IMG/VR virus record: IMGVR_UViG_2859821903_000004 | Location: 1-14,159 of that record | Reading direction: 5' to 3' (one strand) | Length of the DNA: 14,159 nt | Source: a virus | Taxonomy: Duplodnaviria > Heunggongvirae > Uroviricota > Caudoviricetes | Shown: one piece after another, positions 9,186 through 10,117 of the stretch | Layout of the letters: each line of letters opens with the position of its first letter | How positions within the stretch are numbered: position 1 is the first letter of the stretch | The notes under the pieces: generated by a model | Database searches by the model: none | Seen by the model: the letters and a program-made list of their open reading frames with translations, nothing else | What the model was told of the DNA's origin: nothing | Position numbers and translations under genes: made by a program

Positions 9186-9207
9186 AAGTGAATTTTGTGA
9201 TGCGGTG
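9186..9207. repeat. Left arm of a 22-bp perfect inverted repeat (AAGTGAATTTTGTGATGCGGTG)
   Basis: Its exact reverse complement is at 10096-10117. The arms are now separated by IS1 and its duplicated target; about 111 bp lay between them before insertion. Confidence 0.8.
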
Positions 9208-9325
9208 AATGCGGCTAAGCGCACGCGGCACAGTTAAAAGTCATGTTAGTCCTTATTGGTTTGGGTGGGAGGTGATGCTGCCAACTTACTGATTTAGTGT
9301 ATGATGGTGTTTTTGAGGTGCTCCA

Positions 9326-9601
9326 GTGGCTTCTGTTTCTATCAGCTGTCCCTCCTGTTCAGCTACTGACGGGGTGGTGCGTAACGGCAAAAGCACTGCC
9401 GGACATCAGCGCTATCTCTGCTCTCACTGCCGTAAAACATGGCAACTGCAGTTCACTTACACCGCTTCTCAACCCGGTACGCACCAGAAAATCATTGATA
9501 TGGCCATGAATGGCGTTGGATGCCGGGCAACCGCCCGCATTATGGGCGTTGGCCTCAACACGATTTTCCGCCATTTAAAAAACTCAGGCCGCAGTCGGTA
9601 A
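9326..9601 (+). CDS. insA: IS1 InsA (zinc-finger/HTH transposition regulator)
   Basis: 91-aa [43 protein letters not shown]... Confidence 0.9.
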
Positions 9602-10023
9602 CCTCGCGCATACAGCCGGGCAGTGACGTCATCGTCTGCGCGGAAATGGACGAACAGTGGGGATACGTCGGGGCTAAATCGCGCCAGCGCTGGCTGTTTT
9701 ACGCGTATGACAGGCTCCGGAAGACGGTTGTTGCGCACGTATTCGGTGAACGCACTCTGGCCACACTGGAGCGTCTTCTGAGCCTGCTGTCGGCCTTTGA
9801 GGTCGTGGTATGGATGACGGATGGCTGGCCGCTGTATGAATCCCGCCTGAAGGGAAAGCTGCACGTAATCAGCAAGCGATATACGCAGCGAATTGAGCGG
9901 CATAACCTGAATCTGAGGCAGCACCTGGCACGGCTGGGACGGAAGTCGCTGTCGTTCTCAAAATCGGTGGAGCTGCATGACAAAGTCATCGGGCATTATC
10001 TGAACATAAAACACTATCAATAA
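9520..10023 (+). CDS. insB: IS1 InsB reading frame (expressed as an InsAB' transposase by -1 frameshifting)
   Basis: ORF in the -1 frame relative to insA, overlapping it across the A6C motif. Confidence 0.85.
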
Positions 10024-10095
10024 GTTGGAGTCATTACCTGGGTGGGAAAGCCGACTGTAATTGTTAACTGGTTAACGTCACCTGGAGGCACTAGG

Positions 10096-10117
10096 CACCG
10101 CATCACAAAATTCACTT
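10096..10117. repeat. Right arm of the 22-bp perfect inverted repeat (CACCGCATCACAAAATTCACTT)
   Basis: Exact reverse complement of 9186-9207; the match stops on both sides. Confidence 0.8.

Follow-up and report, generated by a model that had tools for sequence, protein, structure and literature searches.

A perfect 22-bp inverted repeat split by IS1 in a Shigella-type prophage remnant: a probable RNase III processing stem behind a DicF-like terminator

What is a perfect 22-bp inverted repeat doing on either side of an insertion sequence (IS) in a phage early operon? The question is raised by a 14,159-nt stretch of viral DNA (Caudoviricetes; IMG/VR record IMGVR_UViG_2859821903_000004, positions 1 to 14,159; hereafter the window), which is an IS-riddled remnant of a lambdoid prophage in a Shigella/enteroinvasive Escherichia coli (EIEC)-type background. 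A reading made from the letters alone (the sequence-only reading) had noticed the repeat, reckoned that its arms were originally about 111 bp apart, and suggested an RNase III-type duplex linked to maturation of the small RNA (sRNA) DicF, with recombinase sites or protein-binding sites as the alternatives. The repeat is a real but essentially known feature, within a decaying Shigella-type prophage. We consider it quite probable that it is the basal helix, here called P1, of a plus-strand RNA of about 155 nt that follows the terminator of a DicF-like RNA and is cut by RNase III when transcription reads through.

The two 22-nt arms, of which AAGTGAATTTTGTGATGCGGTG is the left one, came out of a repeat search of the window as 100% complementary with 888 nt between them, and pairing ends sharply, the flanks GCCCTTTTTA and CGGTGATGAA being non-complementary; on both counts the repeat is as it had been described. 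By a naive estimate, about 6e-6 perfect inverted pairs of 22 nt would be expected in 14 kb. Searched for with up to three mismatches, the 22-mer has two matches in the window, both of them the arms, and none in 200 shuffles. Between the arms is an IS1 of exactly 768 bp (ends GGTGATGCTGCC... and ...GGAGTCATTACC), whose insA and insB open reading frames (ORFs; 9326–9601 and 9520–10023) are oriented as the operon is, and which is bounded by a 9-bp direct duplication, TGGGTGGGA. Minus IS1 and one duplicate, the element is 155 nt long with a 111-nt loop, the spacing that had been predicted. An uninterrupted allele with a single TGGGTGGGA is present in E. coli FDAARGOS_944 (L001 4195–4349; 99.6% over 678 nt), and the same intact sequence is also in Shigella flexneri SFBU1023 and E. 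coli ECMA0423 (L135, L158). Since real intact alleles have the single copy, the insertion was clean, as had been claimed. The IS1-interrupted allele was not found in any complete E. coli genome. The element and the RNA before it are made up as follows (A2 is an alignment described below, and L003 is the Qin prophage region of E. coli K-12 MG1655).

9129–9185, plus strand: DicF-like sRNA variant with its intrinsic terminator (Rfam RF00039; terminator scan)
9186–9207, plus strand: left arm of the 22-bp stem, P1 (repeat search; K-12 counterpart at L003 1942–1963)
9208–9261, plus strand: 5′ half of the interior, with an invariant hairpin GCGGC..GCGC at 9211–9226, CAGUUAA at 9231–9237 and the start of the variable centre (A2, RNAalifold)
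9262–9270, no strand: left copy of the target-site duplication, TGGGTGGGA (a single copy in intact alleles)
9271–10038, plus strand: IS1, 768 bp, in the variable centre of the loop (termini and length; absent from intact alleles)
10039–10047, no strand: right copy of the target-site duplication (sequence inspection)
10048–10095, plus strand: 3′ half of the interior, with helix P2 at 10053–10079, its conserved loop UUGUUAACUGG, and helix P3, CCUGG-AGGCA-CUAGG, at 10081–10095, with one G·U (covariation)
10096–10117, plus strand: right arm of P1 (repeat search; pair counts, A2 columns 174–197)

The place of the element relative to the DicF-like RNA is exact. The terminator stem is 9147–9174 and its T-run extends to 9185, and the left arm begins at the next base, 9186. 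The RNA itself (9129–9179) matches RF00039 with 28.6 bits (E = 2e-4; gathering score 48) and aligns with K-12 dicF and with an O157 DicF copy that does exceed the gathering score. A homologous hairpin is found in MG1655 Qin between dicF (L003 1883–1935) and dicB (ATG at 2110), with arms at 1942–1963 and 2074–2095 around a 110-nt loop whose arm-proximal sequences are near-identical to those of the window. In the K-12 stem 19 of the 22 positions pair, the outer three pairs of the window not being kept, and over 1945–1963/2074–2092 the complementarity is 89%; the two mismatches are G·U pairs on plus-strand RNA. The two hairpins share their position directly after the T-run of a DicF terminator and some 14–22 nt before the next start codon, their arm sequence (apart from the two G·U differences), their conserved loop-proximal segments and their 110–111-nt loop. 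They differ in that the upstream sRNA of the window is a divergent DicF variant, that its downstream cistron is not dicB but an Ash–Rha regulator with isrK and C4 RNAs, and that its stem is perfect over 22 bp while the loop centre is another cassette and is IS1-split. By position, homology and helix, the window element belongs with the 3′-side RNase III processing hairpins of DicF in dicBF-type operons.

The evidence that RNase III acts at this hairpin comes from K-12. According to the passages on DicF processing in PMC5069750 and PMC9438474, RNase III acts on the full-length mRNA of dicBF and so makes the 3′ end of a 72-nt DicF. When 72 nt are counted from the annotated 5′ end of dicF, this reported end falls at L003 1954 (1883 + 71), nt 13 of the 22-nt left arm, which is where a cut would be expected in a two-turn RNase III substrate. 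Counting by homology puts the 3′ end of a long DicF of the window, if RNase III makes one there as those passages have it for K-12, near 9198. Table S1 of Gordon et al. 2017 has an entry for position 1649470, labelled 'intergenic dicF-dicB' and 'Known: Yes', where wild type has 0 and 0 reads and delta-rnc has 26; this position is L003 1971, 8 nt within the K-12 loop. A separate RNase III site upstream of dicF makes the 5′ end of a 190-nt precursor (PMC10448788).

With the window and K-12 taken together, events could be as follows. Most early-left transcripts would end at the DicF terminator. In those that read through, the arms would pair into a 22-bp duplex of about two helical turns around an interior resembling the STnc100 sRNA, and RNase III would cut within P1, as reported for K-12. 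The cut would give DicF an alternative 3′ end, making it 72 nt instead of 53 nt, and would detach the sRNA from the downstream cistron, which is dicB in K-12 and the Ash–Rha regulator in the window; it may also affect translation or stability downstream. The window variant would presumably have been cleaved as its K-12 homologue is, until a clean insertion put IS1 in the variable middle of the interior. The link to DicF maturation proposed by the sequence-only reading gains support from the terminator adjacency, the K-12 hairpin and, as the K-12 sources give it, the 72-nt end, and likewise from covariation and from the strand asymmetry of substitutions, considered next.

Copies of the element were collected by anchors within the loop and not by the arms. 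The sample has 120 viral-contig loci, 26 real copies from species-representative genomes (Escherichia, Shigella, Pseudescherichia, Citrobacter, Klebsiella, Raoultella, Enterobacter, Scandinavium and Pantoea) and copies from phages P7, SfV and a Klebsiella phage. One sequence per distinct arm pair gave A2, an alignment of 42 sequences from about ten genera. The reconstructed pre-insertion element folds with a minimum free energy (MFE) of −60.1 kcal/mol (z = −4.6), and P1 is present in both the MFE and the centroid structures. Unguided RNAalifold on A2 found four helices (the inner part of the closing stem, the invariant 5′ hairpin, P2 and P3), with compensatory changes in 11 of 22 predicted pairs. 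Pairs were also counted on an explicit structure that includes the full 22-bp stem, the controls being the same structure with its 3′ partners slid by 1–3 columns. Paired cells were 91.0% against 34–40.5% in the slid controls, pairs changed on both sides were 25 against 5–16, and the observed values were reached in 0 of 500 shuffles. Double changes occur at 14 of the 22 pairs of P1, at five of the six core pairs of P2 and at three of the five of P3. Stems of some 19–23 bp with largely different outer sequences are present in the Citrobacter, Pseudescherichia, Klebsiella/Raoultella and Enterobacter copies. In rows with a long stem there are 50 G·U cells and 13 A·C cells, and in P2 there are 40 and 4. 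Such an excess of G·U over A·C is what a plus-strand RNA helix, and not a DNA palindrome, would leave. Covariation and strand asymmetry together show P1 to be a plus-strand RNA helix.

The interior was also informative, and the 111 nt are no mere spacer. About 30 nt beside each arm are conserved better than DicF itself. Against Rfam STnc100 (RF02076), the K-12 element, which is intact, scores 34.1 bits (E = 9.5e-6), through the closing stem and P3, under the gathering score of 47. A long-stem copy from Pseudescherichia (L131) scores 47.8 bits over the whole model and is the sole relative to pass. The Rfam scan of the window gave no STnc100 match, its copy being split by IS1. The consensus helices of STnc100, a closing stem and a CCNGG-AGGCA-CCNGG hairpin, are both present in the element with covariation. 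STnc100 is a prophage sRNA family related to PasD, and both were detected as Hfq-associated sRNAs (2026 Pas/STnc100 survey). The element shares with them the closing stem, a GGUGAAU... 5′ segment, the AGGCA hairpin and confinement to intergenic regions of lambdoid prophages. It differs in that E. coli-type copies are under the gathering score (34 versus 47 bits) and that canonical STnc100 belongs to late regions, one instance being 75 nt 3′ of stx2, and does not follow DicF. The interior is a conserved multi-helix RNA and, within the STnc100 family, a divergent member. A term search of the main text of the 2026 survey gave 0 occurrences each of DicF and RNase III, and no paper linking DicF with STnc100/PasD was found in the literature that was searchable or read.

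The centre of the interior is variable, with at least eight cassettes. Two half-deleted alleles in viral contigs (L028, about 1416–1560, and L036, about 4378–4520) retain only the right half of the module together with dicB. Their breaks are in the same variable loop centre where the IS1 of the window landed, and this coincidence suggests a tolerated or recombination-prone zone.

Within the interior, CAGUUAA (9231–9237) and the UUAACUG of the P2 loop (10064–10070; A2 columns 51–59 and 135–141) are a candidate pseudoknot or alternative pairing. In A2, 93.5% of its cells are paired and two of its seven pairs are double-changed; the sequence is nearly invariant, so that support for the pairing is weak. 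A small ORF in the loop (9209–9283 as reconstructed; ATG at 9209, MRLSARGTVK..., 24–30 codons) was considered and thought unlikely. It starts 2 nt past the left arm, is open in the variants inspected, and an A/G/C site at codon 3 is synonymous. However, no Shine-Dalgarno (SD) sequence was seen by eye, its frame relative to the conserved 3′ part shifts from one cassette to another, and a hairpin loop would suit the variable site as well.

The length of the closing stem goes with its genomic surroundings. A long stem is present in 84 of 99 distinct copies, and 82 of these 84 are directly after a terminator T-run, the DicF context. None of the 15 copies with a short stem, which include those of the P7 ban operon, SfV, Scandinavium and Pantoea, has a terminator of this kind before it; the heuristic for stem length undercounts a few bulged stems, such as that of L131. 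The copies behind DicF are thus the specialised ones, with their two-turn stem. An SD sequence and a start codon are 36–87 nt past the start of the right arm in 88 of the 99 copies, so the module is a sense-oriented intercistronic element. A bolder proposal, which we advance tentatively and regard as doubtful as a whole, is that the dicF–dicB 'spacer' is a third product of the dicBF operon: an RNA of the STnc100/PasD family whose closing stem was lengthened from about 8 to about 22 bp behind terminators, so that RNase III excises it when transcription reads through and in doing so sets both the 3′ end of DicF and the 5′ end of the toxic or regulatory cistron downstream, with stem length acting as an evolutionary switch for processing.

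Several points weigh against RNase III processing of the window element or limit how much can be built on it. The DicF-like RNA falls under the Rfam threshold, as its 28.6 bits against 48 indicate. The window allele has two mismatches in P2, and with these as well as the interruption, the element may have been non-functional even before IS1 arrived. Most alleles are from closely related E. coli prophages, and independent compensatory events are far fewer than the cell counts; many rows of A2 being close relatives, the comparisons across genera are the stronger evidence. The 72-nt end is given by secondary sources, and its place within the arm, found by counting, may be wrong by a few nucleotides. 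The RNA-seq evidence for the dicF–dicB site is 26 reads, and a 2023 study, that of the 190-nt precursor, has RNase III act at the 5′ end alone of that precursor and leaves a 3′ site unmentioned.

The remaining live alternative is one that overlaps with RNase III processing and does not contradict it. P1 might serve mainly to close and stabilise the STnc100-like RNA, as an sRNA precursor, mRNA leader or stability element, with cleavage being incidental or unimportant in this lineage. Copies whose stems, at 7–12 bp, are too short for RNase III (P7, SfV, Scandinavium, Pantoea) have the same interior, P2 and P3 covary independently of P1, L131 is a formal member of STnc100, and STnc100/PasD are Hfq-associated, all of which would fit. 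On that view, though, the tie between the long stem and a terminator (82 of 84 against 0 of 15 for short stems) is unexpected, as is an RNase III-dependent end inside the arm, where the K-12 data, as the secondary sources report them, place it. We rate closing and stabilising as the main function of P1 unlikely, and continue to favour RNase III processing.

The module has also been found in other positions. In SfV-type and Scandinavium prophages (L126, SfV, 2015–2225; L138/L142; L128/L180) it is upstream of a DicF-like RNA, and in P7 it belongs to the ban operon, with tRNA genes on one side and terB on the other. The L128 row of a further alignment, A3, has wrong coordinates and is disregarded. 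These varied positions show that the module is a cassette which has been shuffled from one phage early operon to another. The short-stem copies of P7 (L124 2489–2496) and Pantoea eucrina (L177) have a boxA-like TGCTCTTA directly 5′ of them, and the Scandinavium short-stem copy (L138) has a boxA-like CGCTCTCA at the same place; a nut-like or NusB/E-binding context for short-stem copies is a possibility that these motifs raise. The motif is absent from DicF-linked copies, including that of the window, and a nut-like antitermination site at the window element was rejected on this ground. An intrinsic terminator formed by P1 was also rejected: there is no U-run past the right arm.

Movement between phage contexts (mostly after DicF, before a DicF-like RNA in SfV and Scandinavium, and in the ban operon of P7) is what a miniature inverted-repeat transposable element (MITE) would show, and the 155-bp unit could be read as MITE-like with the arms as its terminal inverted repeats. 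The chance of this we put very low. There is no target-site duplication at the flanks, no copy with such a duplication was seen at an unrelated chromosomal site, copies occur only in homologous early-operon slots and always in sense orientation, and the arms range from 7 to more than 22 bp and covary instead of being conserved. Nor is the 22-mer a dispersed repeat with no local partner in uninterrupted alleles, a finding that would have told against the sequence-only reading: intact alleles carry both arms, and of 215 occurrences of the arm core 204 are locally partnered. Of the 11 partnerless cores, eight are at locus ends, two are the half-deleted alleles and one has an arm substitution that the search pattern missed.

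Just as improbable, in our estimate, is an inverted pair of DNA operators for a phage repressor or another protein, for instance looping round a promoter, which would be the protein-binding alternative of the sequence-only reading. The immunity-proximal position beside repressor genes suits it, as does a right arm 38 bp upstream of the promoter-like −35 hexamer of isrK, but the K-12 arms precede dicB with no promoter there. What other genera keep is the pairing and not the sequence, which is the opposite of a protein-binding site, and the prevalence of G·U over A·C is what an RNA made from one strand leaves; covariation and strand asymmetry thus dispose of this alternative.

That the element is an invertible DNA switch of 111 bp with recombinase sites for arms, as in the promoter or gene switches fimS, hin and the gut 'invertons', where a short segment flanked by inverted repeats is likewise upstream of a gene, is scarcely credible: with the T-run as an asymmetric reference all 124 terminator-plus-left-arm junctions are native and 0 inverted, an artificial inverted K-12 allele has no high-identity colinear match by megablast in 5,426 E. 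coli genome assemblies (the 201 full-length hits, with 81.6% identity, are native alleles that megablast had bridged, as inspection of L186 showed), so that the second orientation is absent wherever it was sought, no invertase or recombinase gene is adjacent (the neighbours are the repressor, DUF1391 and Ash–Rha, then kilR, ydaE and recET in intact relatives), and the arms vary between genera in sequence and length yet stay complementary, with substitutions that favour G·U on one strand.

What has the insertion done to the element? In a hypothetical 952-nt transcript across IS1 the arms keep their complementarity in silico, being paired in the MFE structure and in the centroid structure alike, and if the arms are co-transcribed, any uncoupling would stem from IS1 polarity together with the kinetics of co-transcriptional folding. 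Transcriptional polarity within IS1 is established knowledge. That the insertion uncouples the two sides of the element, as had been expected from the letters, is plausible, and polarity and co-transcriptional folding would now presumably abolish processing. The DicF-like RNA of the window can still be made, by termination.

Flanking or intercistronic duplexes that host RNase III cuts are familiar from rRNA-operon stems, T7 early mRNA sites and the lambda N leader, where the mechanism is like the one proposed here, although there is no sequence homology with the window hairpin. T7 sites are short internal-loop hairpins cut on one strand, and rRNA stems enclose kilobase-sized RNAs; the RNase III cuts in those long-range duplexes separate products and define their ends. 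The copy in the window matters little, being disrupted, and the connection of its K-12 counterpart with RNase III dates from 1990 (Faubladier, Cam & Bouche 1990 is reportedly the source cited for the 3′ processing of 72-nt DicF). Of somewhat wider use is that what separates dicF from the next gene, in prophages of about ten enterobacterial genera, is a conserved and covarying RNA related to STnc100, and that this offers a testable model for how DicF isoforms and toxic genes downstream, such as dicB, come apart on read-through transcripts. This joins two prophage sRNA literatures, that of DicF and that of STnc100/PasD. The STnc100/PasD identity of the interior and the correlation of stem length with terminators appear not to be described in searchable papers; the result is an incremental one.

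The element is part of the early-left operon of a prophage of the Qin/Rac type, whose other features in the window are these.

8179–8586, plus strand: helix-turn-helix (HTH) repressor gene (ORF list, Pfam)
8683–8712, plus strand: sigma-70-like promoter TTGACC-18-TAAATT, 3′ of the HTH repressor gene (consensus scan only)
8735–8941, plus strand: DUF1391 (ydfA-like) ORF, the first gene of the operon (Pfam PF07151, E = 6e-29; homologues annotated in L001 and L002)
10127–10979, plus strand: next cistron, the 279-aa Ash+Rha ORF (ORF list; Pfam Phage_ASH and Phage_pRha; RefSeq homologues)
10156–10379, plus strand: promoter-like site at 10156–10184, isrK-like RNA at 10191–10267 and C4 antisense RNA at 10292–10379 (Rfam gathering-level matches; promoter scans)

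The promoter at 8683–8712 occupies the position that corresponds to the order dicA–dicBp–ydfA in K-12, and it is probably the counterpart of dicBp; as the early-left promoter it would give rise to the transcript with the hairpin. The true start of the DUF1391 ORF is likely to be an internal ATG near 8786. The Ash+Rha ORF has the SD sequence AGGAAAG and an ATG at 10140, 22 nt past the stem, and is in the slot that dicB has in K-12; in intact relatives kilR, ydaE and recET follow downstream. With its own promoter-like site, the isrK/C4 part is an independent module, like immI of phages P1/P7 or isrK of Gifsy-1, that needs no read-through of the hairpin.

Amino acids 14–105 of the 'Rha family' ORF 10140–10979 (window 10140–10454) match Phage_ASH (PF10554, E = 1.6e-16), and this region overlaps, on the same strand, the Rfam isrK and C4 matches. 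Either it is coding and RNA-encoding at once, or the Pfam family consists partly of translated RNA genes.

Between the DUF1391 gene and the DicF-like RNA there is a conserved motif, ACCACC-RAG-CCYGRAG-GTGGTGAAA...CRGGCA (8986–9030), which is also at about 4006–4050 in L001, 1944–1986 in L126 and 2446–2480 in L125, and is common to SfV and the Klebsiella phage. It had no Rfam match and its fold is no more stable than those of shuffles; two mutually exclusive small hairpins are possible in it. Elsewhere in the window, at 711–1763, 2354–3567 and 11103–12277, are a fragment of an IpaH-type NEL E3-ligase gene and, besides IS1, two IS3-family elements, one of which has an apical loop–internal loop (ALIL) frameshift pseudoknot at 2635–2751.

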